Assembly: GCA_043228905.1 (NCBI GenBank)
Contig: JBHGNT010000010.1
Span: 4,340,001-4,404,000 of the forward strand
Direction of reading: 5' to 3'
Length of the DNA stretch: 64,000 nucleotides
Origin: Azolla caroliniana
Taxonomy: Eukaryota > Plantae > Polypodiophyta
Part shown: positions 23,931-64,000 of the stretch, in pieces
Layout of the letters: the number at the start of each line of letters is the position of its first letter
Numbering within the stretch: the stretch's first letter is position 1
Notes under the pieces: model-generated
Database searches by the model: none
What the model saw: the letters and a program-made list of their open reading frames with translations, nothing else
Told to the model about the DNA's origin: nothing
Program-made: the position numbers and the translations under genes

Positions 23931-24213
23931 CAAGCCTTGCTATCTCCACTACTTCATTAGTACATCGTAATATGGGCAAGGTAAACCCTCTCTAAGTGTT
24001 GTAATTTCTCTTTCTCTTTCTCTTTTTGCTTCCACCATGGGCTTAATGCAAAAACCCCTATGACCAAACCCTAATATATTCAAACCACCGTCAGAAGGTC
24101 TAGAGCTTGGATCCTCGTATCCCTTTCCACTCATTTTAACACATCTTTGTTAAGACTATATCCCAAACAACAACCTCACAATCGGTGTATCGAACCAACA
24201 ACCTCGTAATTCA

Positions 24214-24263
<50 letters not shown>

Positions 24264-24272
24264 ATCGTAATT

Positions 24273-24336
24273 ACCTTACCCTAGTGGTAAGCTGTTAGCA
24301 CTATAAGCATTGCGTTCTGGGTTCGAAACCCAACTT
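24273..24336 (+). ncRNA. tRNA-derived (SINE-head-like) sequence between (TC)n tracts
   Basis: A-box-like TAGTGGTAA and B-box/T-arm TGGGTTCGAAACCCA at tRNA-like spacing; no complete cloverleaf. Confidence 0.5.
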
Positions 24337-24344
24337 TCTCACCT

Positions 24345-25770
24345 CTCTCTCTCTCTCCAAGGCCAAATGTTGGACCCAATACAAGAGAGTTTTAACCCAC
24401 TCGTCTTAGCAAGGAGTCACATACAAGATGATATGTTGATTTCGTTCCATAGTTCAAATTGACCTCACAAACGATATCTATTCTTTTCTTTTTGACTATC
24501 TATTATATTCTTCTTCTTCTTCTTCTTTTGGTAGAACCGCACAATTATATTAATTGTATGTTGTGCACATATAGAATGTTGAATCTTTAGAGGAATACAT
24601 CCATCGAGCAATGGTCTCCATGATGCTTGAATCTTAGTTTTCCCATGCAATAATCCTTTATGTGCAAAAAAATATTGCATCGTAAATATCCATGATATTG
24701 TTGACACATATATCCTAATACTGCAAATCTACGGGCAATCAAGTGCATTTCCAAATTCAATATTGCAGCACCACCTAACTGTTTGGGAGTAGCCAAATGA
24801 TCTCATGAAATTCATACAACTTTTCTCTCTTCCCCCACAACATGAACCGAATGGCAAAGAGGTTGCGATAATGTTTGCAATGACTCAGGAGATGGTACCT
24901 TTGGTATCAATACAATTATGCCCACCTTCCAACTGTCAAGCATGAAACCAAAATCCCAACATTGTTGAAACATTTGCATGAATGGTCTCTTAAGCACGCT
25001 AACATATCTTTCTAAGTCTTCGTTTGTGATATCATCCCAACTAGGACTTTTACCATTTGGAAGGTCGATACCTTTTCCACCTCCACTTCTTCAAACTCAA
25101 CATCCAACTATTGACCAATATTTGTATTCACAGTACACCCAACTACATCATAAAACTTTACCTAATCAACTTCTTAAAATGATAAATACATACCTTAATA
25201 ACCTTGACTAGGTTCACAAAAATATTATCTCCTATCTTAATTTGCACCACATTTGAATGAGCATATGATGGTCATAATCTTTGGAAAACATATGAGATTG
25301 TGATTGATTATCTATAAACCCCTCATGTAACTTACCTTGTGATAACTTTGATAACATCCGATTTCCACAATGTCCTAAATCTGAACTTGAAGATTCAAAG
25401 CTCTTCATCATTTTGATTATGCATCAATAATACATTACATCAAGTAAGAATATGTGAAAACTTATCGATCAATTGCCTTCATCTTTGAGCATTAGTTAAA
25501 CCATACATATGGTGAATATCATCAATGTTTTTTTTTAAATAGTGTATTGCATGCATGACATCCCTTTGAATTAATGTGTTCTTAAAACATACAAAAATGT
25601 GTTGCATATAGGCATCAAATAAGGAATGAAACAATAAAGACTAATTAAACCTCAAAGGAATCTTATCGAGCAATGTAATATACATATCCATCACATGTTT
25701 ATTAAACTCGAAACATATGAGAAATGATCCGATGATACAAGCTATTGAACAACTAACATATTATGAATCT
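24345..25770 (-). mobile_element. Degenerate LINE (L1-like), 3' part with RT remnants
   Basis: WKVGIIVLIPK and PKQLGGAAILNL motifs; ends at a (GA)n tract; continues on the far side of the copia insertion. Confidence 0.7.
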
Positions 25771-26168
25771 TGTAAACGTAAGTGTTTGCGGAAGCGTAAA
25801 ACAGAGAACAACACAGAGAGAGAGAGAGAGAGAGAGCAGAACACAATTTCAAAATTATATCAAGACTCCTTTTTCTACACATTGTGCTAAGTAGCACTAT
25901 TTATACAAGTCCTCTTGGGACTGACAGAAGTACCATGTACTTCAATGCTCACACGAGCATCTGACACTTACTACGAGACTATAGCTACCTAGTGGTCTAT
26001 CCTATACTAGGCTTCCGATTGGACTGCCGGTTACGGATTGCACGCGGCCTCCACTGCTTGCCAGTTCGGTTGCTCACCGTCATACCGATCCGTTTCGCCC
26101 GATCCGTCTCGCTTACCGGCTCCGGCTTATTCAGCCGATCCGGCTCCGGTTGAGCTTGCCGCTCAACA
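25771..26168 (-). repeat. 3' LTR of the copia element
   Basis: Direct repeat of 31895-32300, adjacent to the PPT. Confidence 0.95.
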
Positions 26169-29100
26169 CTCCCCCTCAAGCTCAACCTGAGGTGGGGTCG
26201 TAGTGTCGACCTCTATGGCAGTCGGTTCTTCCAACCGACTTCTCCTGGCGACACTCCGCCTTGCTCGCGCTCCTCGTCCGGTCCGGTCCCGTTTGTCGCG
26301 ACCCCTTTGGTTCTGCGCGCCTCGACCCTCTCGGTCGGTATGTCTGCTCAATCGGCCCATCTCAGCAGTCACGTTGTTGTGACTCCAGCGCTTGCCGATC
26401 CGTCGGTTCTCCCACGATGGCATCGACTTCCGCTGTGTCTGTGTCCCCTTGGCCTTCAATCGATCCGTCTCATCCGGATCCATCTGTTGATCCGAGTCAG
26501 CTGTCTCCGACTCGTTCCAGCTCTTGTTTGAATCGGTACACTTCGATTCGACTTCCGGTGTCAGGCCTCTCACCACATCGGACCACTTCCGAGTCTTGGC
26601 CTTCTCCATGCTTCCCTCGGCTTCTTCAGCCGGTGAACCGAAATTGAATTCTTCATTCGACTCTGTATCATGGTCAGTACCGTCGTGATGACCTCCGCAC
26701 AACATGCGCTTCTCTTCCTGAGTGCACAACTCTTCTTCACAGCCGCTTGCTCCGACCTGTTCGGATGTGTCGACTTCCTTCATCTTCTTGTCTCCTCTTC
26801 TTTCGGCTCTCCTCTTACCGATGGGTTCAACAGTTTTTTTTCCTTTGCCAGTTTCGGTAGAGACTTTGCCCTTGCTTCTCCCCCTCAAGTGCGGCACGTC
26901 GAGATGTTGAATACCAAGCATGTCGGTAAAGTGCTGCAACTTGTCCGATCCGAGCGGCTTGGTGAAGATGTCGGCAACTTGCCGATCCGTATGAACATAC
27001 CGTAGGTCAACTTCACCGCTCAGGACCCGCTCACGCATGAAGTGGTAGTGCACCTCGATGTGCTTTGTGCGAGCATGGAACACAGGGTTCCTGGCGAGCT
27101 GCAGGCTGCTCATGTTATCGCAGTAAATCGGGATTGGGGTCGGCACCTCGATCCGCAAGTCTCGCAGCAGTCGCCGAAGCCAGATGGCTTCACAAGTGGC
27201 AACGGTAGCAGCCCAGTACTCAACCTCAGTGCTTGACAAAGCCACTGTGGGCTGCTTCTTGCTGCTCCACGCAACGGCCGTGCTACCTATGGAGAACATG
27301 TATCCGGAAGTGGAGCGACGATCAGACGCATCTCCAGCCCAGTCAGCATCGGTGTAACCGACAAGCTCTTCGGGTATACCTCGGCGGTATAGCAGTCCCC
27401 GGTCCTTAGTGCCGCTGACATACCGTAATATGCGTTGCGCGCACTGAAGGTGCTCCACGGTCGGCTTCTGCATGAACTGACTTACCATGCCGACCGGATA
27501 GCTGATGTCGGGTCGGGTGATGGTTAAGTAGATCAGGCTTCCGACAACCTGTCGGAACCGTTTCTCATTGCAGGCCGGTCCGGAGTTGGGACAGAGCTTT
27601 TGGTTTCGGTCCAGGGGTGTGGAGACAGGTCGGCAATCTGTCATGCCGAACTTATACAACATATTCAACACGTAATGTCGTTGCGAGAGCAATATGTCGT
27701 CGGGGGTCCGGATCACTTCGATCCCAAGAAAATAATGAAGGTCCCCCAGGTCCTTCATTTCGAATGCGTTCAACAACTGGGACTTGACACGGTTGATTTC
27801 GGGAAGACCCGGTCCGGTGATGACTAAATCATCCACATACAAGAGTATACATACCGGACCGTCAGAGCCTTGCCGGATGAACAACGAAGAGTCCGACTTG
27901 GAGACAACAAACCCCAGCTTACGCAACCGGTGCGTGATCTTCGCGTTCCAAGCTCGGGGGGCTTGCTTCAAGCCGTAAAGCGACTTCTTCAGTCGGCATA
28001 CCGCCGACTTGTTCATCTCCGATTGAAATCCGGGGGGCTGAGTCATAAAGACTTCTTCTTCAAGCTCTCCTTGAAGGAAGGCGTTCTTCACATCCATCTA
28101 GTGAAGATGCCACCCCCTTGCCGCAACAACCGCCAGTACCACACGAATCGTCATCATCTTCGCCACAGGAGCGAAGGTCTCGTTGTAGTCGATTCCGTGG
28201 GTCTGCGCATATCCCTTCGCCACTAACCGGGCTTTGTACCGGTTAACAGAACTGTCGACGTTGTACTTGACCTTGTACACCCACTTGCATCCGATCGGTT
28301 TACAGTGACGGGGAGGATCAACTAGGTTCCAAGTTTCGTTGGCATCGAGTGCCCGCATTTCTTCGTCCATAGCGGCACGCCAATTTGCGTCCTTTGCCGC
28401 TTCTGTGTAGCTCTCCGGCTCACGCACTTCTGTCACCTTAGTCATGTATGCATAATGATGCGCAATGTATTCATTGTACTCGTACCGTATGGCGGGATCC
28501 TTCTGGCGGGTTGATCGGCGCAACGCACCGTCACCTGATTTGAGGCCCTTCTTGGCCAGTTCGGTCTTCGTTACCGAAGATCTGCCTTTCTCCTTTTCGG
28601 AGTCGGATACGCACCGATCCGACTCATCGTTGCCGGTTTCAAATTCCAGCATCTTCCTCTTCCCCTTCTCTTTGCGCGTGAACCGTTTCCTCGGTTCCTT
28701 GCGTGGGGAGAGCACGACAGAGTTTCCACCACTTGCCGTCTCTTCATCCGACTAGTCCAACCGACTCAGTCGCTCGTTCGGTCCACTCAACCGTAACGAT
28801 TCCGGACTCTCATCTTGAGTCTCGACTTCATCATCCTCTGCCAGGGCTGATTCAGGCTCACTGGCCTGATCTTCCGGCATTCGGTCGGGATCGGAAGTCG
28901 GAGTCGGTACGGAGTACTAGGATGCCGATTCATCGAACTCGACATCCCGGCTAACTCGGACTTCCTTCGTCCGGGGGTTATAGCACTTATACCCCTTTTG
29001 CTCTTGAGCATAGCCGACTAGGATGCATTTTTCCAATTTTGCATCCAGCTTTCTCCGCTTCTGATCCGGCACATGCACATACGCTATGCTGCCAAATATC

Positions 29101-31142
29101 CGAAGGTGTCTTAAGTTCGGCTTGTGCCCGAAATACAGCTCATGAGCTGACACCTTGTCACCAATGCAGTTTTGTATGTAGACGGCCGTCTAGACCACCT
29201 CCACCCAGTAGAACCGGGGCATGCTCTTCTCCTCTAGCATTGCCCTTGCCGCTTCGACGAGTGTCCGGTTCTTCCTTTCGGCCACACCATTTTGCTCCGG
29301 TGTGTATCTGCAGCTGAACTCTCGCCGAATTCCCTTCTGCTGCAGATAACTAGTGAATTGGCCGGAAAAATATTCCTTTCCGCCATCCGACCGAAGGCAT
29401 TTGATCTTCCTCTCCGATTCCCGTTCCACCATCTTCTGGAGGCTCCGGAAACAGTCGAAGAGTTCGCTCTTCCGCTCAATGAGGTAGATCCAAGTATGTC
29501 GAGTATAGTCGTCGATGAAGGAGACGAAGTATCGGCTCCCGCCAAGGCTTACACTTTGTGCCGGTCCCCACACATCCGAATGGATGAGATCGAGCTTGTT
29601 ACGGCTCCGGTTCCGTTCGGTGGGGAATGGAAACCGGTGTTGCTTCCCAAGTTGGCAGGCTTGACAAATTTCGGCTCTCCGGCTGCTGAACTTCGGCAAA
29701 CCGAAAACGACTTGTTTTGTTTGCAGGTCTTGAAGCCTCCGGTAGTTGACGTGGCCTATCCACTTGTGCCACAGGTCGATGTCCGACTCGACCTTTTGTC
29801 GATTCGCGAACAGAGCAGTGCCAAGGTCATTGGTGTTGAGGATAAACATCCTCCCATCTCTGCGCCCTTGCGCAATGACTTCGCCCTCATCCTCAATGAA
29901 GCACCCGAGGTGCGTAAACCGCACCTGCATCCCTTGGTCGACAATCTGACCGACGGACACCAGGTTCTTCGTGATTGTCGGAACGTGTAATACGTTCATC
30001 AGCTTCCCTTTCTGTCCGACGTGGCTTAGAGGGACTTCTCCGACGTGCACGATTCGGTGAGGAGTGTCGTCTCCGGTTTCAACTACTCCTGGTTGATCCG
30101 GTTTCTCCAGAAAGGAGAACCACTCTTTGTGGCTCGTCATGTGGTTCGACGCGCCGGAATCAACATACCACACTTCCTCCGTTTTGGAAGTGGTCTTCTT
30201 CATTGAGTTTGCCTTGTGATTCATCACCAAGGCTGGTCCCTTACCGGCCTTTCCGGTTCCGGATCCTCCTGATCCGTTTGCGTAGTGCGAGTTTTGCCGA
30301 CCATCCTTACCGGTCTTGCCGGATCCGGATTTGTCCGAATCGGCACGCTTTCTCCAGCACTCGCTTTCCCTGTGGCCTTTTTTTACCACAGTACCAGCAT
30401 TCCCTAGCGGATTTGTCTTGCCGGCCTCCGGCACCGCCTTGACTCCCCCTGCTTGTGGAAGTCCCGGAACTGCTGTCGGCACGCTCATAGTGCCTCCGTT
30501 CCTGCTCTTGCCGGCCGCCTCCATTGCGTGCCGACCCACCTCTTCCACCACGCCCACGGAGCCGATCCGTTCCCGTGTACAACATTCGGCTGTCCGGGGA
30601 TGCACTGGTAGATGCACCGGCGTGGTTCTCCTCTATAAGGAGCATCGACTGTAAGTCGAAGAATGAGGGGGTATTCTCCCTTGTACACACCGCAGTCCGG
30701 AACGCTCCGAACTTGGACGCCAGGCCTCTGAGACATACCTGCACCATCTCGTCTTCCTCTACGGTAACATTGATAGAGGCGAGCGAGTCGCAGATCTCCT
30801 TTATCCAGCCCGTGTAGTCTGCCACAGACATGTTCTTCTGTCGAACATTGCTCAACTCCTGTCTGAGTTGCAGCTTCCGGGCAGTGGTGCTTGCGGCGAA
30901 AACCTTTTTCAGGTTCCCCCAAGCATCCTTCGGTGTCTTGGCGTCACGGATGTGGCTGAGCAGCTGATCGCCGACACTGGACGCGAAGCAGTACATCACC
31001 TTGCTTGCCGCCTGTTCCCATACCGGGAAGTCCTTGTGTGCCGAGTCTGGCGCTGCATCATTCTCTCCTTCGACATAACTCCAGTACCCGTGTCCAAGCA
31101 GGTACTGGTGCATCTTGTAAGACCAGGATGCGTAGTTGCTCC

Positions 31143-31749
31143 TGATGGAAAATAATCGATTGACACTTTCCAAACTTCACCTCTCGGCCACAACCGAGGA
31201 AACACACGAATCGTTGTTGCAGAAAATGGGAAATGCGAAAAATAGAATGGACACACGATTTAACGTGGAAAACCCTGTACGGGAAAAAACCACGGGAGTA
31301 CAAGACTCCGAACCAAAACTATGCACAGAGAAGTATACAATGGCGAGCTGCAAGGCGACGACCTTGAGCTCGCTGTCCTCGCCACAGGCGGCGGAAATAC
31401 ACAGAGGCGTCGACCTCTTCCTCTCTCACGCTCTATCTCTCTCACGGCTGCTCTCTCTTCACTCCTCTTGAGTGGAAAAACAAAAAAATGAGTAGCAACA
31501 TTAAAACAGTTTGCCCTAAGTCATATTTATACACATATGACTTTGGGGCTATTTACAACTATAGCCTCAAGGGCCCTTGGCAAACATATTCACAGATATG
31601 TCCCCGCATCCGGATCTCTCTCCGGGTACATTCGTCATCCGGCTCAGAAGCCGGGGTCTTCATCATCCGGTTCCGAAACCGCAACCGGGCTTGTCGGCAT
31701 TCATCTCCGACATCCGACCATCCCATCCGAAGGGACCGTAATCCCAACA
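31143..31749 (-). mobile_element. Solo LTR (607 bp) of another family inserted in the copia gag; TSD GGAGC
   Basis: TGTTGG...CCATCA flanked by GCTCC at 31138-31142 and 31750-31754. Removing it restores gag MATSLPVEKLDRS|NYASWSYKM from ATG 31788. Confidence 0.88.
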
Positions 31750-31894
31750 GCTCCTGTCGAGCTTCTCCACCGGGAGCGACGTAGCCATGCCTCTATCCAT
31801 GTCTTCTACTGTGTCTGTTTTCGACCTGTTAGGGTTTTCTTCTCAAGAGTAAATGTCTGCAGCAGAGGTTCTCAACCCTCGCGCTCTGGTACCA

Positions 31895-31934
31895 TGTAAA
31901 CGTAAGTGTTTGCGGAAGCGTAAAACAGAGAACA

Positions 31935-31972
<38 letters not shown>

Positions 31973-32300
31973 ACACAATTTCAAAATTATATCAAGACTC
32001 CTTTTTCTACACACTGTGCTAAGTAGCACTATTTATACAAGTCCTCTTGGGACTGACAGAAGTACCATGTACTTCAATGCTCACACGAGCATCTGACACT
32101 TACTACGAGACTATAGCTACCTAGTGGTCTATCCTATACTAGGCTTTCGATTGGACTACCGGTTACGGATTGCACCCGGCCTCCATTGTTTGCCGGTTCG
32201 GTTGCTCACCGTCATACCGATCCGTTTCGCCCGATCCGTCTCGCTTACCGGCTCTGGCTTATTCAGCCGATCCGGCTCCGGTTGCGCTTGCCGCTCAACA
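31895..32300 (-). repeat. 5' LTR of the copia element
   Basis: Direct repeat of 25771-26168, followed on the minus strand by the PBS. Confidence 0.95.
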
Positions 32301-48146: not shown

Positions 48147-51100
48147 TTAAGACATGTCTGATGGACTAGAAGAGCATTCTGACGTCTCATCCTCATCATC
48201 AGTGGCAATCAAAGCATTATCCTCATCCAATTCCAACCCAACATCTTTGTGGTTATGAGAATTGCTTCTGGTTATTCTCTGTATTTTGTTTGACACCATG
48301 TTTGGGATTTTCTCCTTTATTATCTTGATAGTTGCTTGTCTCAGATGACCTGATTTTGTCAATGAGAAGTCATATACTAGTATGTCAACACGGTCTAGTG
48401 CGAGAGTAGCCGTGCTCGGTATATTCTTTCTTCTTCTCTTTCTGCTTGAACATCCGACATCCTTAACCATCTCTAAAGAATACTTTCCTGTAAATGCATC
48501 AAGTGAATTTGTCTGATACCAGTGGACTACTATTGACTTTGTCTGACTACTTTCTTCATCCCTTACTAATTCAATAATTTTTGCAATCCAAAATGGATGG
48601 CCCAAGGTATCGTCCCCTGCTAATGTTGCAACCAACATTCCCACTTGTAGTTCTTGCAAATTACCTTGCCATCTTGCCTCAACAGTACGTTGTCGTGCCT
48701 TTCGGCTCCGGATCGTTGCGTGAGTCGGGTGGGAACCGCCGAGGTTTTGGACTAGGAGAAAGAAGAATATGAGATAAGGCTAGTAATGAATATATTATTA
48801 GAAAGAGAGATAGAAATTTCGTGAATCCCACGAGTGTATTGTAATCGATTAATCAATATTTAGATAAAATATGTATTTAGATTGAAAGAAAGATATAAGA
48901 AACTTGTGAATCCCACAAGTATAGATTATATTATTTTCGTGAATCCCACGATTATATTAATCGGTTGGTGTTTTCGGAAATATATCCAATTTCCAAATAT
49001 TTCACACACCTATTACATTGTGCTCCCCATCCTTATATAGTGATGGGAGAGACTAAGCATAGCTACATGCTTTTTTTCTAATATGTTCATGCACACTAAA
49101 TGTGCATGTGATGCTTTCTTAATCCTTGCTTTTATTTGCTAAATATAGTGCTCATGCACGCTAGATGTGCATGAGTCACTTTTTAGTTGCTTGCGTTTTT
49201 CTATAAAATATTCACGCACTCTAAAAATGCACGATTTACCTTTTAATAAAGGTAGGTGCAAATAAAGCACTTATAGTTATTAAATCTATTTGTAGAACAC
49301 TAAAGATAAGGTAGCATAATGGTAAAGTTGAGGTTTGGCTATGTGGAGGTACAAGGTTCAAATCTTGCCCTATGCACGTGATAAATATCTTGATATTCTT
49401 ATTTTATTTATTGGTGATAAATATCTTGATATTCTTATTTTATTTATTTATATGTAATTAAATCGGTTATATTATTTTTACTTTTTCACGTAGTGTACGA
49501 AATACACTACGACACTCGCCCCCTCCGAACCCGCACATCCTCCGGTATGTGCCGAAGTTGCCGATGCTCGTTGTCTCCCCTTCATCCTCCGTTTGTCCCG
49601 CTATGTCAACTTTGTCTCTCCATTTTGAGTAGACCCATTCTTTTCACCCGAACCATTGTCGCCATCCGATCCACCATATTCTTTGTTCTCTCTCGTCATA
49701 TTCTTGGCCCTTGTCATTCGTGGTAGTGTCTTTTACTGGCCTCTTTCTTGTCTTCATCAACCTTGACTTTTTTCCGGATCGCTCTCGTCCGATCGACTTT
49801 CGGTTTGATCGGCTTCCGATCGGATTCGTATTCGGCCGAATCGGAATCGGTTGTTTGGTTTCGATTGAGTCGGTCTCCTTCCGACCCGGTTTCGATCTAT
49901 CGGTTTCGGTTTTGGTTGGCTTTCTTTTCCTCGTTTTCACCAGCCTCGACCGGTCCAACCTTCGGTTGAGTCGGATTAGCTTCTTTCCGGATCGGTCTCG
50001 TCCGATCGGCTTTCGGCTAGGTCGGCTTCCATCCATATTTGCGTTCGGCCAAGTCAGACTCGGTCGATCGGTTTTGACCGAGTCGACCCCTTTTCAGGTC
50101 GGCTTTCTTTTGGGTCGTCTTTCGACCGAATCCTCATTCGCCCGGTTCGGCTTTCTTTCGGGTCGACTTTTGGTCGAATCCTCTTTTACCCGGTTCGGCT
50201 TTCTTTCGGATCGGAATCCCGTCCGGATCACCTTCCATCCTAACTGGCTTCCGACTTTACCTTTCTTGCCGCCACCTCCCGTCTCTCCGGTCTCACGTTG
50301 GTTCTCGGACACAACTGCCGAAGTCTCTAGAATTAGTGGGTAGGAATCCTCGGTATTATCATCCTCCATTGTTTCACCCATAGCCATATTCTCGGCTATC
50401 TCTCTGTCGTATGCATCGACTTCGACCTTTGTTTTCTCTCCGCCACCTTCCGTCTCTTCGGTCTCACGTTGCCTTTCGAACGCAACCGCCGGAGTCTCTG
50501 GAATCAGTGGTGGAGAAATCTCAATATGGCCATCCGCCATTGATTCGTCCATAGCCACCTTCGATTCGATGTCATCTTTCTTGGTGACCTCCTCAATCAA
50601 GTCCTCTTTGCTCTCTTTCATTGCATCAATTATGCTTACCCCTTTTTCACCCGATGTTTCGGACACTTGTATTCTGAAATCTTCTTCTACACTTGGGTTA
50701 TCGGCCTTATCCTTCGTCATTGTTCTTTCGCAAGACAAGAGGGTAGCTTGTTTTACACCCTCTTCCGTCGGACCATCATGTTGTATTTCGGCCTTCATAT
50801 CGGCTCCATCGTTTGTCTTCAATCGACCATCCTTCATCGGCCATGTCGTTGACAAGATTCTCATCTTCCTCTCATCATGTCTCCGGCATACCCTTTGGAC
50901 TTCGGCCCAATTTTCGGTAAGACCATTCGTACCGTTATCGTCTTCGAGTTCAATCCCGATGTCCTTCCTTTCTTTCCGATCAATCGATCTTACGAACATT
51001 AGGACTTTGTCCTCCCCCACCAATCTTTGTTCTTGCTCTGAGAGTCGCGCAAAACGATGCTCGAACTCTAGGAATGCTTGTGTTGCACTTTGGTGGGTCT

Positions 51101-54100
51101 TCTCCGATGCCACCCATTCGTCGAATTTTCGCCGATCTTGTCCCTTTGATCTCTTGTAATCATATGCCTCTCGTAAAGCTTCTTCGAATGACCCCCATGT
51201 CGAGTTTTGTTGCCGTATCTTGTGGATTCTCTCTTGTAGCTCATCCGTGGCCACCCGATTGAAGGATGTCACTTGCAATCCTTCCGGTATCCCACATCGT
51301 ATCATCTCCGCCTTGTAGTCACGTAGATAGCATGACACATCGTTTCCGTTGAATTGTCCGTTTCGTTGTACGAGCCGCTTTACTGCCCCCGTGATCTCCG
51401 ACATCACTCGTTGTTCTTGTAGCATCCGCTCGAACATCATCATCATCGTTATGCTCATTGCCTCTTGTTGATTCTCCATCTCCTTGCCACCCGCCTTCAC
51501 GTCGGGTTCACCAACTGTGTCGTGCCTTTCGGCTCCGGATCGTTGCGTGAGTCGGGTGGGAACCGCCGAGGTTTTGGACTAGGAGAAAGAAGAATATGAG
51601 ATAAGGCTAGTAATGAATATATTATTAGAAAGAGAGATAGAAATTTCGTGAATCCCACGAGTGTATTGTAATCGATTAATCAATATTTAGATAAAATATG
51701 TATTTAGATTGAAAGAAAGATATAAGAAACTTGTGAATCCCACAAGTATAGATTATATTATTTTCGTGAATCCCACGATTATATTAATCGGTTGGTGTTT
51801 TCGGAAATATATCCAATTTCCAAATATTTCACACACCTATTACATTGTGCTCCCCATCCTTATATAGTGATGGGAGAGACTAAGCATAGCTACATGCTTT
51901 TTTTCTAATATGTTCATGCACACTAAATGTGCATGTGATGCTTTCTTAATCCTTGCTTTTATTTGCTAAATATAGTGCTCATGCACGCTAGATGTGCATG
52001 AGTCACTTTTTAGTTGCTTGCGTTTTTCTATAAAATATTCACGCACTCTAAAAATGCACGATTTACCTTTTAATAAAGGTAGGTGCAAATAAAGCACTTA
52101 TAGTTATTAAATCTATTTGTAGAACACTAAAGATAAGGTAGCATAATGGTAAAGTTGAGGTTTGGCTACGTGGAGGTACAAGGTTCAAATCTTGCCCTAT
52201 GCACGTGATAAATATCTTGATATTCTTATTTTATTTATTGGTGATAAATATCTTGATATTCTTATTTTATTTATTTATATGTAATTAAATCGGTTATATT
52301 ATTTTTACTTTTTCACGTAGTGTACGAAATACACTACGACAACGTGACTTTCTTGGTCCCACATAAATATCTCTTTGCAGTGGCCGAACTAAATCATGAA
52401 GCTCCATATTATTCGATTGTTGGTGATGAGTCTGCGATATCGTTGATGTCATCCCAATGTTCCATGTGAATGGGATACAGATTGGCCATAAACCGACGAT
52501 GTAATTATCTAAAATGGTGTGTTGATGGGTGAAGAAAATCTCCCACCATTCAACATCCTCATCACCGGCATACTTCTTAGTCCGATCAATATTATTTTGT
52601 TTCTCTGCTAGACATCTCAACCAATATGCCCTTTGTTCATCAATAGTACTATTTGGTGCTACATTTTTACGATCATCATATGGCATTTGTTGTGCACCAT
52701 GTAGAGGTTCATCTGGGATATGAAGAAGGAGCCTACAACCTTCTTGGGGCTCCCATTGTGCACTAGATGAGTATTGTTTCGCAAACAACACCGTCATCTT
52801 CAGGTGGGCCGATCTTTGTTTTATGAGGAAGACATGGTTGAAACTTATATTATTAAGAGGTGCAAGCACCCTACCTTTAGTCCCGTCACTATCCATGCAG
52901 AAACGTTTAAAGTCGTATACTTCTTCCAAGTGTTGTACTTCAGGCTTTGGTGTATATGCTTCACTAATCAATTTGGATAGCGTGGGAAGTGTGAAAGCAT
53001 TACAGCGAGCAAGTTTCTTTGAGAACCTACTGAACATTTGATCTATGTGATCATGGGTATGACCAACCAACAAGAAGTTAACCTTTATCTTTTTAAATAT
53101 GCCCCTCTCTACTAGCATGCTTAGATAGCCGAAGACAGTTGAGTTCTTATTCTCTCTTGCTGTGTTGTCTAGTTGCACATATAGAACTGGCGGGAGTATA
53201 CCTGACCATGATTGCAATACCCTGTGCATGACAGTGACAGTAAGATTAGGGTCGTTGTGGATATTGGGATAAGTTAAGAACACTTGCGGTCTTATAGTTT
53301 GACAATATGTCAAACAACCCACTAGATGCATTTGCACGAGACACTCATCTCCAATATCCTTGGGGAGTCTTTGAAAATGCGGCAAACAAGTTTTCTTTTG
53401 ATCCATGCCGTCAATAATCATGCACATATACTTTTCGGGAGATTGAAACACTTTTTGTCGGTGATGCATAGCCTTAGTATGTTCCAATGCCTGACTTTCA
53501 CGATGTTCTTTTAACAGGTTCTTGTAATTCTTGATCTCTACATCTGATTTTCCACCCTTGGCCATACTTTTTAAACTCGCACATATTGAGCAGACTCCCA
53601 TTCGCACCTTTCGTGGGATAACCACGTTATTAAATTGTAACCTCCATAGTCGATTAAAATGCATGTACTGTATGTAAGGCTCAACATCGGAAGACATGTC
53701 GTCCTTGTACGATTGGTAAACTTCCCTTCGAGTAAAGTTATCTGACAAATGAAGTCTTCCTGTCGTTGGCATAACTTCGCACTGTTTTGAAAAATATACC
53801 TCCATCCACCTAATTGCCTGTTGCCCAATTTGACCCTTACATCCAGAACCATTTTGATCGAACTGTACCCAGGAGCCCTTCAGAAGTCGCTCTTGAACTC
53901 GTTGCAGCCGCATATTTCCAATGCTATGAGTGATTTTAAAAGCTGCTCGACAACACTTGGTATTTAGTCCAAGGAAATATTCAACTTGCGTTGAATTAGG
54001 CCCTGCTTTGTGATCCAATTTAAGTTGCATATGCGCAAGAAGAAATGTATCTTGCTCTTCCCCATTAAGCGACAAGTATTTTTGTCGTGTTTCACGTAAC

Positions 54101-54474
54101 CTTGACTTTCCATAAGTTGATAGACAGAGATTCGCACAACACGATTTGTTCAAGTCGCATAGAAGTTGACGATCAGAACATAAGAAATTAAATCTCTTTT
54201 CACTAACTTGTCGAGGAACTCTTTTAAATGCTAGAGGTTTAGTAATGCTATTGTTATCTATCGACGAAGAATCGTCCGCTTGTAAGCTTGCATGAAGAGA
54301 GCCATCAACAGGATCAATTGAAAACAGAGAATTCGAAGTACTAGGAGCCACACTTTTCTGTTTAAGCTGCGAATGTTTTTTGTGGTCGTACTCTTCTATT
54401 GAGAAATACGAGTTGTCTGACAATGAAAAGGGGGCAATAGAAAAAAGAGATGTTCTACTTGTAGAAGAAGACAT
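48147..54474 (-). CDS. Transposase, ~890 aa when 54474-52342 is joined to 48686-48147; interrupted by an LTR element
   Basis: CC...C and CxxC clusters; IIDGMDQKKT; LYVQLDNTARENKN; FLLVGHTHDHIDQMFS. After removing the insert and one TSD copy the frame reads GPRKSR|TVEARWQGNLQEL with no stops. Confidence 0.85.
49312..49364 (+). promoter_or_regulatory. Pol III type-2-like A box/B box within the LTR, antisense to the element; copies at 52139-52191 and, on the minus strand, ~54878-54930 and ~61308-61360
   Basis: TAGCATAATGG fits TRGCNNARYGG; GGTTCAAATC B box ~33 nt downstream. Confidence 0.6.
50094..51479 (-). CDS. Gag-like protein with acidic, repetitive C-terminus; no pol
   Basis: N-terminal half closely matches the gag at 55505+ (QRNGQFNG.DVS.YL.DYKAEM...GLQVTSFNRVATD); C-terminal half has a duplicated PL..ET.AV...QRET.ETGGG unit. 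Confidence 0.85.
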   Translation of the reverse strand: MENQQEAMSITMMMMFERMLQEQRVMSEITGAVKRLVQRNGQFNGNDVSCYLRDYKAEMIRCGIPEGLQVTSFNRVATDELQERIHKIRQQNSTWGSFEEALREAYDYKRSKGQDRRKFDEWVASEKTHQSATQAFLEFEHRFARLSEQEQRLVGEDKVLMFVRSIDRKERKDIGIELEDDNGTNGLTENWAEVQRVCRRHDERKMRILSTTWPMKDGRLKTNDGADMKAEIQHDGPTEEGVKQATLLSCERTMTKDKADNPSVEEDFRIQVSETSGEKGVSIIDAMKESKEDLIEEVTKKDDIESKVAMDESMADGHIEISPPLIPETPAVAFERQRETEETEGGGEKTKVEVDAYDREIAENMAMGETMEDDNTEDSYPLILETSAVVSENQRETGETGGGGKKGKVGSQLGWKVIRTGFRSERKPNRVKEDSTKSRPERKPNRANEDSVERRPKRKPT

Positions 54475-55504
54475 TTGAGGGAGTCTAATTGTATTCTAAA
54501 ACCTTTTTTTGAGAAAATTAAGGAATGCTAAAGCCTAACTATATAACTACCCGATCACTTAGATTAACTATATTATTTTCCGAAATTTTCCTAAAAAACA
54601 AATAATTAAAAAATATTTTTTATTTTAAAAGGAATGCTAAAGTCTTCTATATAAGGAGGTTAGAAATTTCATTTTCATTATCACGTTGTCGTAGTGTAGG
54701 TTGCACACTATGTGGAAATTATATTTTTGTCTCTCCGGATAGAGAATGGATTGCTCGGTGAGAACCGGAAGAAAACGGCATACCGGCAAGGAAGAAAACG
54801 GCATACCGGCAAGGAAGAGCCGGATAAAGAGACATAAATGTAAAAAGAAAGGAAATACTCACTACTGGGCAGGGCGTGATTTGAACTTTGCACCTCCACG
54901 TTGACAAACCCCAACCTTACCATTACATTAACTTTTCTTAAGTGTTTTAAATATAGATTTAATACGTATAAGACCTTTATTTATGCATACCTTTATTAAA
55001 AGGTAAATCGTGTATTTTTTTAATATATGAAAAAGAAAAACGCGAGACACTAAAAATAACTCATGCACATCTAGCGTGCATGAGCCCTATACTTAGGAAA
55101 TAAAAAAGCATCACATGCACATTTAGTGGGCATGAACATATTAGAAAAAAGCATGTATCTATGCTTAGTCTCTCCCATCACTATATAAGGATGGGGAGCA
55201 CATTGTAGTTTTTGTTGATTATTTGGATTAAGTATTAATCAATACAAAAATTATTCGTGGGATTCACGATTTATACATCTACTTCTCTCTTAACACCCTA
55301 AGTACCAATTAATATAGTATACTCGTGTGATTCACGAGTTTCTTATCTTTCTCTTTGCTATTTACTCATAATTAATCTCTATCTCACGAACTTCTTTCTC
55401 CTAGTCCAAGACCTCTGTGGTTCCCACCCGACTCACGCAACGATCCGGAGCCAAAAGGCACGACACAAGTTGGTGAACCCGACGTGAAAACGGGTGGCAA
55501 GGAG

Positions 55505-57546
55505 ATGGAGGCTCAACAAGCTAACAATATGATGGCGATGTTCGAACGGATGCTTCAAGAACAACGCACGATGTCGGAGATTTCGGCATCAGTATCTAGC
55601 GGCTCGTGCAACGCAACGGGCAATTTAATGGTAAGGATGTGTCGCGATATTTGCAGGACTACAAGGCGGAGATGCTCCGGTGCCGGGCTTCGGAAGGACT
55701 GCAAGTGACATCCTTTAACCGGGTGGCGACCGACGGGCTTCAAGGGAGTATCCACGGGTTGCAACAACAAAATCCGACGTGGGAAGCATTCGAAGAGGCG
55801 TTAAAGACCACGTTTGCCATCGAGGACTCCTCCAAGGCAACGCGGAGGGGATTCGAGGATTGGGTGGAAACGTCAGGTAAGGGGCTGAAGGTCCTCGAAG
55901 TGTTTTCGACATTCGAAAGTCGGTTCGGGAGGTTGTCCGCGAGAGATCAAACTATTCTTGCACCGGACAAAGTCATCATGTTTTTGCGAGCTGTGGACGT
56001 CCGGGACCGGAAAGATCTCGGAGTGCTTCTTGAGGACACGACCACCGAAAGCGGCCTCACCGAAACATGGGAAAGCGTGCGGGATATCGTCGCGCGGTAC
56101 ACGAAGAGGGGGCAATGGCTTGCCAACGAAGAAAAGAGGGTTTCAGAACCGATTCCGAAACCGAGAACGGGACTGGAAGACCATCAACCGAGGGCTCGGG
56201 AGATTACAGCCGAGAAGGGAGTCGACGCGTCTACGGTGGAGCAGTTGCTGAAGGAGATGGAGAATCTAAAGATCGCGATGGTGAAGAAGTCGGATGACCG
56301 CCCTACAAGCTCCAAATATACGGATCGACGGTGCATATGGTGCGATAGCGCCGAACACGATCGGAGGGATTGCGACGACCATAAGGAGGCGCTACGACGG
56401 GATCTCATCTACTACGAGGGAAACCGGATTCATTCGATGGACTCTCGGAAGCCACTCCGACCGAACTTCCGGAAAGGCGGCATGAAGAAGGTGCTCAAGG
56501 AGGAGTTAGCGGCAAGAAGCAACTATGCGACAACCGCGGGAATATGTGTCGGGGAGTCAACGGGAGCGAAGGCGTCTTTTTGGCCGGAGGTGCTAGGAAA
56601 CACCGAGAAAACCGACTCCAACGATATCCGAAACACCGCGGAAGGCGTCCGGGAAGCTACGGGATGGGAGTGCCCTGTCGACAAGAATAGCATATACGCC
56701 CTGTGTCAATTACATGAGGTGTATGTGGACGAGAAACGACGGCGCACGGAGGATGCGGCCGGACCATCGAAGATACCGGAAAGCTGGAACTCCGGAGGTA
56801 AGGGAAAAGAAAAGGCGACTCCGGCATTCAAGCTCGCCTCGGACATAGAACAACAAACCGACTTGAAAAGAGTGTTCGAGGAAAGAATCTTGGATAGCCG
56901 GGTAGATTTTTCGCTGCGGGAACTACTCGGAATAGCGAAGAAGGAGTTTCACGATCTTCTCGTGGATCTCGTGAAAAGGAAGAGACAAAGTACGGAGGAA
57001 AATGCTCCAAGGGTGAATGCAAATACCGTTTCAATGAACGACACCGAAGTGGAAGGCGAAATTCCGAACTCCCACTATACAAGGCCACACTGGGCACGTG
57101 CGACTACGGAGACTCCGGTCCGAATCGGCAACATCAAAGAACCCGTGCTAGCATTGATTGATCACGGATCGGAGATCAACTTGATGTCCAAGGAGTTCTA
57201 CCGAAAGGGGAAGTGGCCTATAAACACCAACCATGGATGGAAGATTCGGGCAGCCACGAAAACGACAGAAGACCTGTTTGCGGCTTGTCCGGATGTGACG
57301 GTAAAGATCGGGGATGTCGAAATTGACCAAAATTTCTTTGTACAGGATGAGGTTTCACATTCTGTCATCCTCGGCCAACCCTTTATCACGGCTTCACGGA
57401 TGGAGACGAAGGTGCTCGATAGTGGTGCGGCTTTTGCGCGAATTCGGAGCCAAAACGGAGGGAAATCCGTCCAATTCCTAACGGTGCCGGCAAATCACGA
57501 AAGGAACAAGAGGGAACTCTTGTCCCAAGTGAGAATGGATTTTTAA
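55505..57546 (+). CDS. Gag-protease, with one disabling frameshift near 55590
   Basis: CIWCDSAEHDRRDC zinc knuckle; ALIDHGSEINL protease; ILGQPF; ends MDF*. Confidence 0.88.
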
Positions 57547-60500
57547 AGCGGACTGTTGCGGAGTGGGGAAGTGATAGTCCGAAAAGCCCTGATACCCCAC
57601 ACAGGAAGAAACCTCTCGGAGCAAAACAAGTACGAATCGGCCCGGATGGGGCATCTACGTACACGGCCGTAACCGGAGGAATGAAGAAACAATACCGACA
57701 AGTGGAGGATAAGTTACGGTCGGCATCAATAATAAAAGAAGACGAAGAAATCGTGGGAGTGATCGAGGAAGTGTTCTATGGGAATACACTACAACGGCTT
57801 GAAGAGCTTGCGGAAGATAAAAGCCAAGGGAACCGGGTAGTCCCGGTGGAATCGGTCGAGATGTACGAGATCATTGCGAAAATGGAGCCGGATACGCTCC
57901 GCAAAGAAGAAGCAATGGTAAGTACGAAATACAAGACCGTGGAGAAGAAGGTGAAACCGGCCGCGGGACCACTACCCGCCGATAGCGAACAAAAGAGGAA
58001 AGAAGTCTCGGGAGATCCGACACTTCGGAAGTCCGTGGATATCGGACATGCCTTCACAGATGAGACCCGGAAGAAACTTCGGATCGGTGGAGGTGGGTTC
58101 CTCTTACAAGAAGAAGAAAAACGGTTTCGAGAGATGTTGGAGCAACACGGCAAAGCATTCGCGTTCACATCGAGGGAGATCGGATGCATTGATCCAAAGA
58201 TAGTGGAGCCGATGGTGATTTTCACGATTGATCATGTACCGTGGAACCTGAAGCCGATTCCGGTGCCACGGGCGCATATTCCGAAAGTCATCGACTTGCT
58301 CAAGGAGAAGGTGGCGATGGGGATTCTAGAGCCATCAAGTGCTCCGTACTCAAATCGATGGTTTACGGTTCCGAAGAAGAATGGGTCACTCCGATTCATC
58401 CAAGACTTGCAACCGGTGAACAAGGTCACGATCCGGAACTCGGGAGTCGGTCCGATAGTGGACGAATTCGCGGAAGCTTTTGCCGGACGTGCGATATACT
58501 CCATCGGGGACCTATACTCGGGGTATGACCAATTCCAACTAGCTGTGGAGAGCCGAGACATCACTACCATGCGGACACCGATAGGACTAGTTCGAATGTG
58601 CACACTACCACAAGGAGCGACAAACTCGGTTGCACATATGATGAACGCGATGAACAAGGTGCTTCGAGATTGCATCCCGGGGATAACGATGCCGTTTCTA
58701 GATGACATTCCGATGAAAGGATGCGCGGTGGAAGAAAAAGATGAGACTATGGATGATCGGGGATGCCGAAAGTTCGTGGTCGACCATATTCATGATTGCG
58801 AGAAAGTGTTGCGAAAGCTAGAAGATGTGCACCTAACACTTTCCGGGGAGAAATCGGCATTCGGGCAAGAAGAAATATTGGTGGTCGGACATCTATGTGG
58901 ACCCTACGGCCGAAGACCGTCACCAACAAAGATCGATGCGATTCAAGCTATGAAGGAAGTATGTGAGTCAACATCGGAAGTCCGAAGGTTTCTGGGTGCG
59001 TGTGCATTCTATCACATATGGATTCCGCACTATGCACATATAGCGAACCCGCTCTATCACTTGTTGCGGAAAGGTAAGAAATTCGAGTGGAAACCAGAAC
59101 ACACTAAAGCCATGAGGAAGCTCAAGAAGACACTATGGAGGGCGGAATCACTTAAGAAGCCAAGCTACGAGCGGCCAATCATAGTAACGGTTGATACAAG
59201 TCCAACCGGTATCGGGTGGGTCATCAATCAAGCCGACTCGGATGGTTCGCGGTATCCGATCCGATTTGGAGCAAAGGTCCTCAACGAAAGGCAACGCGGA
59301 TATGCACAAGTCAAAAGAGAATTGTGGGGAGTCGTGTCGGCGATAAAATCGGAGCTGAAGTGGTGATCGAGACGGATTGTCTTCCGATACTCGGGATGAT
59401 GCGGTGTTGTACGATACCGGATGTGGCTATGCTAAGGTGGATTGCATATGTCAAGTCACTTAATCCGGAGGTTCGACACATCTCGGGGAAGGACAACGCG
59501 GTAGCGGACATGTTATCGAGGGCGCGGTTTGAAGACGACATAACCGAATCAGATAATGAAGAAGTTTCCGAAGACTACTTCACGTCAGAACACATATGCC
59601 GAGTGAACGTGATCCGAGAATTCCGGGAAGAAGAATACGAGGGGGAAACCTTGATGATCGGGAAGATGCTACAAGAGGTCGAGGATTCAACCAATGATAA
59701 AGAAAGGAGAGCCGAGATCCGAAGGAAGAAGAGGCAAGTCCAAAAGTTCTTCTTGGAAAACGGTTTAATATGGAGGACGCCGAAAAGACCGGATGGGATA
59801 CCACTTCGAGTAGTCGGGACGAAAGAGCAACGAAACCGGATAATGTCCGAGTTCCACGAATCCGATTGGGCTGGACATCGAGGAACATGGGCAACTTTTG
59901 TGAAAATCAAGCAAAGATATTGGTGGAAGAACATGTATAAAGATGTCGCGGAGTTCACAGAAAGCTGCGAGAAATGTCAAGTCTACTCCGGGGTCCGACA
60001 CCGAGATGAGCTGCATCCGACATTCTCACCGACAATCAACTTCAAGTGGATGGTCGACATTGTAGCTATGCCGACCGGGATTGGACAAAAGAAATACTTG
60101 GTGTTAGCTCGAGAAGATCTCACAAACCAAGTTGAAGGTCGAGCGCTTCGGAGGAAAACGTGTGCCGCGGTGTGCCAATTTCTTTTGGAAGAAGTGTTTT
60201 GTAGGTACGGCTGCGTAGGACAAGTGATTGCGGACCGGGGAGAACTCGACTCGGACAAAGCTAGGGGATTCTTCGCCAAACATGGAGTTCGGTTAACGTT
60301 GACAACGGCCTACAATCCGGAGGCCAACGGGAAGATCGAACGAGGACATAGTCCGATCGTGAAAGCACTTGCGAAGGCATGCGACGGAAGGGTGAAGGAT
60401 TGGCCACAAATGCTTCCGTATGCACTATGGGCGGATCAGACGACGCATAGCTCCGTGACCGGTTACATGCTGGCAGAACTCATGACCGGACAAGCACCAG

Positions 60501-61129
60501 TAATGCCAACGGAAACCGCAATCGCGACATGGACAATACTACCGTGGAAGGAAGAGATGAGCCGGGAAGAACTACTAGCGGTCCGGATACGACAACTGGA
60601 GGGAAGACCGAAAGATGTAGCGGAAGCGTCACGCCGACAACAAGAAGCACGGTTCCGGAACAAAAGCCGGTTCGACACAAAGCACCGACTACGACCGAGG
60701 AGGATTGAAGAAGGAGATTGGGTGATCGTCTATGATAGTAGCTTGGACCATCAACATACAACGATGCGGAAATTCGCGAAAAGGTGGTTCGGGCCGTACG
60801 AGGTTCGGAAGGTCTTCGACAACGGGACGTACCGACTGTCCGAGTTGGATGGAACAATACTACGAGTGCCTATAGCCGGGAAGCGGGTGAAGATTTTCAA
60901 GAAGCGGACCGACGACAAACCTTATGTGATCCAAGTCGAGGCCGACAACGAGGAGCAATCGGACGAAGACCACAATGATGCGGGAAGCGAAGAAAGTGGA
61001 TTACAACTCATAGTCGAAATAAGGGGAGAATCGGAGGAAGCTTCGGATGAAGACGGATACGAAGAATCAAGAACTTCGGCACATACCGGAGGATGTGCGG
61101 GTTTGGAGGGGGCGAGTGTCGTAGTGTAG
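57540..61129 (+). CDS. Pol (RT-RNaseH-integrase), entered by -1 frameshift; one disabling frameshift/deletion near 59345
   Basis: LRFIQDLQPVN, DLYSGYDQF, LPQGATNSV, FLDD; VDTS...RELWG; H..GH..CxxC, IADRG, NGKIERGH, WFGPY; acidic tail, no chromodomain seen. Confidence 0.9.
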
Positions 61130-62136
61130 GTTGCACACTATGTGGAAATTATATTTTTGTCTCTCCGGATAGAGAATGGAGTGCTCGGTGAGAACCGGAA
61201 GAAAACGGCATACCGGCAAGGAGGAAAACGGCATACCGGCAAGGAAGAGCCGGATAAAGAGACATAAATGTAAAAAGAAAGGAAATACTCACTACTACGC
61301 AAGGCATGATTCGAACTCTGCACCTCCACGTTGACAAACCCCAACCTTACCATTACATTAACTTTTCTTAAGTGTTTTAATATAGATTTAATACGTATAA
61401 GACCTTTATTTATGCATACCTTTATTAAAAGGTAAATCGTGTATTTTTTTTAATATATGAAAAAGAAAAACGCGAGACACTAAAAATAACTCATGCACAT
61501 CTAGCGTGCATGAGCCCTATACTTAGGAAATAAAAAAGCATCACATGCACATTTAGTGGGCATGAACATATTAGAAAAAAGCATGTATCTATGCTTAGTC
61601 TCTCCCATCACTATATAAGGATGGGGAGCACATTGTAGTTTTTGTTGATTATTTGGATTAAGTATTAATCAATACAAAAATTATTCGTGGGATTCACGAT
61701 TTATACATCTACTTCTCTCTTAACACCCTAAGTACCAATTAATATAGTATACTCGTGTGATTCACGAGTTTCTTATCTTTCTCTTTGCTATTTACTCATA
61801 ATTAATCTCTATCTCACGAACTTCTTTCTCCTAGTCCAAGACCTCTGTGGTTCCCACCCGACTCACGCAACGATCCGGAGCCGAAAGGCACGACAACGTG
61901 AAAGAATCCATCGAGCTCAGAGCACAGGCCAATTTTCGAGCACTCAGAAGCACATCGTCGACAGCACTACCTCCGGCACGAACCATGAACAAGGGAAAGA
62001 AAATCGTCAGGTTAGTAATATTCTTTACATTTTTTAAGATTCCTAAAGATTCCTTAAAGATTCCTTTCCTCAACACATAGATATTTTATTTTATTTTGTA
62101 CAACGAACTTGGAAAGCAATTTTGAAAGGCAGGACC

Positions 62137-62357: not shown

Positions 62358-63149
62358 ATTGGAGATTCAATCTCCGACACGAGTAAAAAGATTTTATTTG
62401 ACTCAACGGGGGAAGGAGGATCCAAGTCATCTGTGGCTACTACCAAAATCAACAAAGGTAGTACGCAAGAGGAGAAAACGGTTGAGGTGAAATATAAGGA
62501 TTACCCCGAACTTGAATGGTGTCTCTCTTATGTCGAGGAGGATGGGGTGTTGTTATTGATAACGGCAAAATCGGACGGGGAAGGGAAACTTCAGCTTGGA
62601 AAAACATTTAATTATGGGCATGTAACCAAGCTAGAGTACGAAGACATTGATTCTACATGTATTTTAATCGACATCTCGAGCTCAGTTTGCGACAGGCGAT
62701 TGCGACTTAATGAGGGAAACCTAGTAACCGAATCTTGCAATCCCAAGGCTTTGCGTAAAGACCTGCAAACGAAAAATAACTTGTTGGTAGCTCTTCGGTC
62801 GTACGTGACAGGAGAGATGATGACCGGTGAAGCAGAAACTCCACCGAAAAAGTCTAGGAAGACAAATCTTGTTCAAAAGAAATATACTAAACGACCACGA
62901 CCCGAAGAAGAAGAAGAAGAAATATTAGAGTTCGTGGAAGAAGAAGACGACCAACAAGTTGACGTTGTCGAGATATTACGCAAGTGCGTGTGGAAACGAG
63001 GCGGGACCGCGGGGGTCTCGAACCAAAGAGCAAGCGAGGGAGGAGAAAGAGAGAGAACCGGCTACGCAGGACCGGGGATACACAGGGACACGGCCCTTCA
63101 GCACGGAGAACGCGAACAGACACCGACACAGACAGATGCGAATGACTAA
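62358..63149 (+). CDS. Hypothetical protein, possibly an accessory gene of the DNA transposon; 5' structure unresolved (possible exon from ATG 61985)
   Basis: ~260 open codons with NLS-like PPKKSRK/KRPRP and an acidic tract; TATA at ~54646 would sit upstream before the gypsy insertion. Confidence 0.45.
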   Translation: MGDSISDTSKKILFDSTGEGGSKSSVATTKINKGSTQEEKTVEVKYKDYPELEWCLSYVEEDGVLLLITAKSDGEGKLQLGKTFNYGHVTKLEYEDIDSTCILIDISSSVCDRRLRLNEGNLVTESCNPKALRKDLQTKNNLLVALRSYVTGEMMTGEAETPPKKSRKTNLVQKKYTKRPRPEEEEEEILEFVEEEDDQQVDVVEILRKCVWKRGGTAGVSNQRASEGGERERTGYAGPGIHRDTALQHGEREQTPTQTDAND

Positions 63150-64000
63150 ATATGTATATTAACAAAATGGCTAACACGACTACAACCCTCGATGGGGCAC
63201 AGGTTGGTTACAACCGAACAGGCCGGCGAACAGATGCCGATGCTTGTTCGCTTCGACGCACAAAGGGGCAGCAGGTCGGAGGTGCTGCCGGAAGCACTCG
63301 GGCGTTCCTCGAAATAGCGCGAGCCTCCTCGGGACCCTGCACAGAAAGCTATGGAGCTCAAGAAGGAAGGAAACAGAGAGAGAAGCGTCCAGAAACGGTC
63401 CGACAGCACTTCGTCCTCTCTTCGCGAGATCCCTGCAACAGCTCTTTCCTGCTCCTTATATAGGCCGACGAGCAGGCCGTCATGTCAGCTTTATTCCCTG
63501 TCCCTTTCGAACAGGGATCCGCTCCGTTCTTCACGCATCCGCGTAGTTACGCCGCCGACTCGTACAGTTCCTTAGCTCGCGCGCGCGACCGAAAAGACTG
63601 TTCGCGCGGTCTTTGTCTCCACTTGTGTTAGGGCCCGTTCCTGCCGATTATCCTCCTAATTCGCTTCTATGTACAACCTGGAGCGTGCGCGCGTGAAGAA
63701 CCGGTTCCCACGCCTTGGTGCGTCGATTCCGCTTATGGACGGTTTTCTTCACGACATCCGCCCCCACCTAACCGCGCATCCTCCGGTATGCGCCAAGAGA
63801 GTTGGGACGGAGAAAACCGGCCCGTCTTCATTCCTCGCCCGTCGGTTCTTCCTCGTTTTCGGATCGTTCGTCACTGCTGACTAGGAGAGCCGGGTCTGGC
63901 TCGTCGTCGTGTCGCTTCTTGAACGCTTTGATCCGCTTCCCTGCAACCGGTATCGCCATTCTCGTGCCGTCGAGTTCTGTCAGGTGATATGTCCCGTTGT

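Follow-up and report, generated by a model that had tools for sequence, protein, structure and literature searches.

Why should a retrotransposon carry a tRNA-type promoter in its long terminal repeats (LTRs), and carry it backwards? The question is raised by a 64,000-nt stretch of DNA (hereafter the window), in which the LTRs of two Ty3/gypsy elements contain a tRNA-like pair of Pol III promoter boxes in the U3 region. We suggest that this module is a tRNA- or SINE-derived candidate site at which TFIIIC and Pol III would bind; selection would keep it beside the Pol II promoter of the LTR, from which it faces away. We put the probability of this reading at about one half.

Host elements and the module in the window

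The window is plant DNA, with an ACT-domain gene and a copia element recognized by domain search. For one partial host ORF the named proteins most alike by identity are from ferns (70–72%), with Sphagnum and Marchantia at 60%; the host is a non-seed plant, and this search does not establish a moss. The elements and the module are located as follows.

48691–52341, minus strand: short non-autonomous element, 3651 bp, with a gag-like ORF only
54687–61895, plus strand: long gag-pol Ty3/gypsy element, 7209 bp
62966–63756, minus strand: 3' LTR of a third Phygy-type element, followed by ACGT; it lacks the module and serves as internal negative control
49305–49377, plus strand: tRNA-derived module in U3 of the 3' LTR of the short element, tRNA positions 1–73, antisense to the element
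49312–49322, plus strand: A box TAGCATAATGG of this module, by box pattern
49356–49364, plus strand: B box GTTCAAATC, 33 nt from the A box
49347–49350, plus strand: AGGT, tRNA positions 44–47, invariant in 18/18 antisense U3 modules
52132–52204, plus strand: module in the 5' LTR of the short element, same boxes at 52139 and 52183
54865–54937, minus strand: module in the 5' LTR of the long element, TAATGTAATGG at 54930 with GTTCRAATC at 54886
61295–61367, minus strand: module in the 3' LTR of the long element, TAATGTAATGG at 61360 with GTTCRAATC at 61316
49402–49405, plus strand: first T4 run past the B box, a possible Pol III terminator on a T-rich strand, uncorrected for chance
49031–49040, minus strand: TATA-like motif of the presumed Pol II promoter of the LTR, 272 nt from the A box and in the opposite direction; a motif only

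The two complete elements lie in opposite orientation, end in TG...CA and have an identical 18-nt primer-binding site (PBS). The LTRs of the short element (52341–51518 and 49514–48691) are 824 bp long and 99.9% identical; its target-site duplication (TSD) is ACGT (4 bp) and its PBS starts at 51513. The empty site of this insertion is present in two sequencing runs, hence the element is recent. The LTRs of the long element (54687–55465 and 61117–61895) are 779 bp long and 98.6% identical, with the TSD ACGT (4 bp), the PBS from 55471 and a purine tract before 61117. Its Gag is 52% identical to the ORF of the short element over 170 residues. Pfam matches to RVT_1, RT_RNaseH, Integrase_H2C2 and rve are found in the gag-PR-RT-RH-INT order with no extra ORF, and Chromo was not matched in the Pfam search of this element. 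In the window copy the pol frame is broken near 59370. Two close relatives (L001 and L002) have unbroken gag (702–712 codons) and pol (1168–1241 codons) in different frames, which implies a programmed frameshift.

The nearest named reverse transcriptases (RTs) are from Riccia sorocarpa, at 61–68% for most, and the elements are Phygy-type by TSD, PBS and domain order. ACGT is the site of all three Phygy-type insertions (48687–48690, 54683–54686 and 62962–62965), which fits the reported NCGN preference. The PBS pairs over 18 nt with its primer, which we take to be tRNA-Trp in agreement with the Phygy description, and it is identical in most related loci having a 5' end. The same PBS (55471–55488 and 51496–51513) is complementary to the cloned moss small RNA 1-39, which appears as a miRNA in table 1 of PMC1838911. 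This RNA resembles a tRNA 3' fragment, and such fragments could target Phygy-type elements.

Other features of the window are observations in their own right. An ORF of 733 codons with DUF7869 (52294–54495, minus strand) extends into the 5' LTR of the short element, and a frame at 48147–48779 (minus strand) continues this gene past the 3' LTR; similar DNA flanks the related locus L016. The DUF7869 gene thus seems, from its reading frames, to be interrupted by the short element. The copia element at about 25770–32300 (minus strand) has LTRs about 96% identical, which contain an AG repeat and no Pol III module.

All four modules lie inside LTRs on the upstream side of the TATA motif; the LTR start is 136–251 nt away, and their orientation is antisense to the element. 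The box patterns follow the well-known A-box and B-box consensus, and the two boxes stand at a working distance for a type 2 Pol III promoter. The strict pattern is found in 0/3000 shuffled LTRs and has no match in 30 shuffled windows; with one A-box mismatch allowed, the figures are 3/3000 and 0.13 per shuffled window. Chance is therefore excluded, and the antisense A and B boxes at tRNA spacing, which the preliminary description reported for all four gypsy LTRs, are confirmed.

A functional tRNA gene was considered and rejected. In a scan of 201 nt the Rfam tRNA model spans 49305–49375 end to end, but its 12.8 bits (E 5.5) are far under the cut-off of 29. Pairing is no better than in shuffled sequence. 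Rfam scans of the whole window (E 5) and of 10 loci (E 10) gave no tRNA-family match, and ARAGORN called no gene; a lowered threshold gave noise.

The preliminary description also stated that the module was retained while the flanking U3 diverged between the two subfamilies. This stands on one side only. Between the subfamilies 52–54/71 positions of the module are identical (8/11 in the A box), and beyond its tRNA 3' end the identity falls to 40–42/101. However, U3 on the TATA side exceeds the module (66–67/80 and then 95/101 near the TATA motif), and the A box of the long element has lost G10. Hence the conservation argument from the window alone fails, and the question has to be asked of a wider set of LTRs.

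Distribution of the module and what is kept within it

A metagenome scan with RT alignment yielded 80 loci. The LTR start or a usable stretch was set by hand in 43 of them (47 stretches), and the 37 loci without LTR sequence were dropped; with three window LTRs the stretches form 39 LTR types at 85% identity. The module profile was built from 22 modules picked by box patterns in the same sequences and was used with a cut-off of 10 bits, the reversed control reaching at most 6.6 bits. Viral contigs gave no match to the element proteins or to the LTR pattern.

At this cut-off 15/39 LTR types hold the module antisense in U3, 3/39 hold it in sense only (one of these as B-box halves only) and 21/39 lack it. 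Retention across lineages thus extends beyond the window, more widely than its letters alone could reveal. The orientation is antisense in 15 of the 18 module-bearing types, and the 21 types without the module mean that it is dispensable. The RTs of the carriers are 68–96% identical to each other and are scattered over the RT tree. Gains and losses are left uncounted because the metagenome contigs may be chimeric, joining LTRs and pol of different subfamilies, and the tree of the 65-nt modules is too weak for counting captures.

Several LTRs hold more than one copy. Two or three antisense copies each are found in L036, L038, L045 and L075, and L019, L022, L038, L045 and L075 additionally hold a sense copy; the sense copy of L005 lies in a piece beyond the span that was used. 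Decay is also seen: in L007, in the second copy of L036, in the sense copy of L010, which falls under the cut-off, and in L044, whose spacer is deleted. In L039 and L041 the module arrives as part of a stretch similar to the beginning of the L045 LTR, which suggests, by sequence likeness, that it was gained through U3 recombination. Separately, a 5' LTR piece of L045 ends in unrelated sequence exactly at the A-box start (about 500–520), a single case that could be an insertion or an assembly join.

In all 18 aligned antisense modules G18, G19, A44, G45, G46, T47, G53, T55, A58 and C61 are present, and other tRNA marks are frequent (T8 in 16, G10 in 15, A14 in 17, T33 in 15 and A38 in 14). As read from the alignment, the conserved positions are tRNA marks, including ones not used for seed picking. 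These marks uphold the tRNA/SINE-type origin proposed at the outset. Mean pairwise identity is highest at positions 44–47 (1.0), followed by the B box with 0.84, the A box with 0.67, the spacer with 0.42 and the flanks with 0.32–0.34. The cloverleaf is lost (46.8% of cells paired vs 48.6% in shuffled sequence), and anticodon positions vary freely. Ten sense copies all keep G18, G19, G46, G53, T55, A58 and C61. This retention of the boxes in both orientations is as expected of a DNA site.

In a less circular test, the same marks reappear when B boxes alone are taken from the 39 representative LTRs. On the antisense strand T8 and G18–G19 lie at 33–34 nt in 14 of 20 cases, and AGGT occupies positions 44–47 in 18 of 20. 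A-box marks at 33–34 nt from a lone B box occur in 7/16 cases on the LTR sense strand, in 1/11 in the host DNA of the window and in 0/37 in internal sequence (193 kb).

When LTRs are chosen by a downstream U3 motif, the module is found in 6/6 of group I (for L003 the upstream DNA was too short) and in 7/8 places of group II, the miss being an LTR cut off at the edge of the module. In the groups sharing a U3 motif, 2/11 core box columns vary, against spacer columns in 20/29 (p 0.006) and 25/29 (p 0.0001); the group II count left out L044 and L039. In two small groups, each a pair, the box excess is non-significant (p 0.08 and 0.56). The identity profile and the motif-group tests are partly circular, since LTRs already seen to bear the module supplied both the profile and the grouping motifs.

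Contigs recruited only via the B-box half (19 in run X1 and 38 in run X5) keep 8/9 A-box letters and 8/21 spacer letters by hand count. Variants within the runs speak against selection on the boxes. The B-box-breaking change C56>T reaches 16–24% of depth in three runs, no less than a spacer CpG change with 12–14% (X1 and X5), and in the contigs of three runs common variants are as scarce in both flanks as in the boxes. The other common box variants (C11T, A57G and T62C) stay within the consensus or approach it.

We conclude that the module is real, tRNA-derived and recurrent across the clade. On the comparisons above it is probably under selection.

What may keep the module in place

The main rival is that the module is a passenger, that is, a relic of SINE heads or tRNA retrocopies which inserted in LTRs once or several times and whose boxes were selected before capture. 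About half of the LTR types do without the module and decayed copies occur, as expected of a passenger. The LTR homology stops at the tRNA 3' end, as it would for a retrocopy, and sense and antisense copies, in U3 and behind the TATA motif, point to repeated capture. A free unit of SINE type is also present in this genome.

24220–24348, plus strand: SINE-like unit of tRNA ancestry that stands free between CT repeats and has A and B boxes; its head differs from the LTR module

Kojima, in the part of PMC10886601 consulted, proposes such a SINE insertion behind the Helenus elements. What speaks against a passenger is the pattern of change: in LTR groups of shared U3 ancestry the spacer drifted while the boxes and their spacing stayed. 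Moreover, of the 18 aligned antisense modules 17 belong to LTRs in which flank identity between distant pairs is close to the shuffled level, yet none of the aligned modules has a spacer indel of more than 1 nt (L044, with its deleted spacer, is outside the alignment). In three DNA runs 0–1% of the contigs, which are short, continue into unlike sequence, and no large free family with this head is seen. We therefore regard a mere relic as unlikely, although it remains the foremost competitor.

The SINE-like unit is of interest in itself. A second copy (87%) lies in the DNA flanking L063 (1357–1484), and a B-box half with AGGT is found at 24190–24212 on the other strand, head to head with the unit. 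By its structure the unit is possibly an undescribed SINE family.

For the site kept by selection we propose the following sequence of events. An antisense SINE head or tRNA retrocopy would have been captured in U3, and the captured module may have spread between lineages via U3 recombination. The module is predicted to serve TFIIIC and Pol III as a docking site on the DNA. These proteins could keep chromatin open, or set up a boundary, directly upstream of the Pol II promoter, and the retrotransposon would benefit from this. The Pol III and Pol II promoters would be arranged divergently, the A box lying about 160 bp from TATA. This distance is 147–190 nt in 8/10 LTRs, measured for the copy nearest to TATA, and 251 and 272 nt in the window elements; all TATA boxes here are motif calls. 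Between the module and the TATA motif many LTRs contain palindromic CATGCA-rich repeats (49110–49190; 3974–4049 in L029; 3462–3531 in L075), which we take to resemble the RY elements bound by B3 factors.

A Pol III transcript from the module would be about 100 nt long; it would run outward, away from the Pol II promoter, and stop within the LTR. A run of four or more T occurs 22–36 nt past the B box in 8/14 cases, later in 3 and nowhere within the LTR in 3, a count uncorrected for chance. Matches in X18 and X19, runs guessed to be RNA, were rejected as such a transcript: they comprise one contig each, cover 49332–49399 only, and have unrelated sides and no A box in register.

The alternative that the product rather than the DNA site is selected, as a Pol III tRNA-like RNA or a hairpin of the genomic RNA with a T-arm-like stem-loop (for example, a decoy or a small-RNA source), is the less probable for the loss of the cloverleaf described above. 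The D and anticodon arms show no advantage of their own partner. The B-box region does fold more stably when joined to its own 3' arm than when arms are swapped between modules (-7.5 vs -6.1 kcal/mol, p 0.006; p 0.007 in 9 less related modules and p 0.003 on the element strand), but these p values are inflated by relatedness, and the advantage is small and could have come down from the parent tRNAs. In many predicted folds AGG (44–46) pairs with bases 3' of the B box, which would explain why AGG is invariant, and a shifted stem with one compensatory change is common to the window short element (WS), L048 and L022; the hairpin registers, however, vary between families. Overall, selection on such an RNA seems clearly improbable to us.

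Another alternative is a second PBS: the antisense module, near the 3' end of the genomic RNA, would catch the primer tRNA and aid minus-strand transfer, as in yeast Ty3. Pairing with a tRNA would explain both the fixed spacing and the antisense bias. The U3 region of HIV-1 is said to contain a tRNA-like sequence as well. However, the existing PBS already pairs over 18 nt, compared with 8 in Ty3, and the module does not match the primer. In the primer tRNA-Trp T59 and A62 are fixed by the PBS, and C50 and T52 by T-stem pairing; in the modules position 50 is A/T and position 52 is G/A in 18/18, position 59 is A/G in 16, and position 62 is T/C in 17. The module as a match to the primer, as deduced from the PBS, was rejected on these four mismatches. 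Furthermore, a CCA anticodon is present in 0/18 modules, and sense copies cannot pair, yet keep the boxes. This makes a primer-catching role very improbable.

The TFIIIC/Pol III site kept by selection is thus our preferred reading. TFIIIC tolerates variable spacing of the boxes, and hence does not by itself account for the fixed spacing and the invariant AGGT, both of which are incompletely explained. A bolder form of the proposal, possible but rather doubtful, is that an autonomous Ty3/gypsy clade repeatedly domesticated tRNA-type units, as a working part of the LTR, with a Pol III/Pol II pair about one nucleosome apart, a TFIIIC shield of the Pol II promoter against silencing and a Pol III hairpin RNA. 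If this were true, the short hairpin RNA encoded by the elements would have a counterpart in the small Pol III RNAs that some viruses make.

Comparison with known systems

The reference clade, Phygy, was described by Neumann et al. 2019 (PMC6317226) as non-chromovirus Ty3/gypsy elements defined by a 4-bp NCGN TSD and a tRNA-Trp PBS. In the text available to us these elements share with ours the TSD, the PBS, a compact internal region and the lack of a chromodomain, come from Physcomitrella only, and measure 7656–9968 bp vs 7209 bp here; an LTR Pol III module is not mentioned in that text. Physcomitrium RLG1 was rejected as the same family, as it has a chromodomain according to the portion of PMC7466625 consulted. 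In Ty3, as given in the accessible part of PMC11381356, the PBS is bipartite, and its 3' part (12 + 11 bp) is matched to the own primer. The likeness lies in a stretch complementary to a tRNA, placed close to the 3' end of the genomic RNA. Unlike in Ty3, the module here mismatches the primer and keeps the promoter-box positions instead.

The preliminary description compared the module to Cassandra, which holds as far as there is a precedent for Pol III promoters in LTRs, while the nearest one is Helenus with its tRNA-derived LTRs. As summarized in the sections of PMC10886601 consulted, Cassandra TRIMs likewise have an internal Pol III promoter that stems from the gene of a small RNA in plant LTRs. 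That promoter is, however, 5S-derived and in sense, it drives the own transcript of a short non-coding element, and this has been demonstrated experimentally.

Helenus, or TRIMp3, comprises non-coding TRIMs of 311–1263 bp, for which Pol III transcription of the element was proposed (Kojima 2024, PMC10886601, as far as available to us); its sole plant case there is Selaginella, with 5-bp TSDs. The likeness is considerable: in both systems both LTRs contain tRNA-derived sequence which is non-functional as a tRNA and has conserved boxes A and B, a SINE insertion is the proposed origin, and function is deduced from conservation. Unlike Helenus, at most about 1.3 kb long and non-coding, the carriers here are a 3.7-kb gag-only and a 7.2-kb gag-pol element with a TATA motif, and the module is mostly antisense (all four window LTRs and 15/18 module-bearing types). 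Autonomous and non-autonomous partners share the module here; the same source calls such sharing unlikely for TRIMp3. Within what was seen of it, no precedent comes closer than Helenus, yet our elements lack two of the features that define it.

The open-access literature searched contains no account of the module in Phygy or in other autonomous plant elements, in line with the earlier remark that it was not known for a plant gypsy family. For LTR motifs of this type a 2026 paper on sugar-beet TRIMs names, in the part consulted, only Cassandra and Helenus/Ajax (PMC13570524). Kojima notes, in the passages seen, that part of a tRNA is present in 'not a few' LTRs of Repbase (PMC10886601), so uncommented catalogue entries may exist.

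A backwards unit in long coding elements cannot transcribe the element, which indicates another use. The retrotransposon may borrow the chromatin properties of TFIIIC and tRNA genes to keep its promoter active; tRNA genes act as chromatin barriers in yeast and animals. In plants the barrier idea would be open to direct test in natural pairs of LTRs, whose modules number zero, one, two or three. With every new insertion, Pol III sites would moreover be spread genome-wide, which matters for tRNA annotation and chromatin maps. LTR promoters derived from small-RNA genes are known from short non-coding TRIMs; what differs here is autonomous coding elements which carry such a module backwards.
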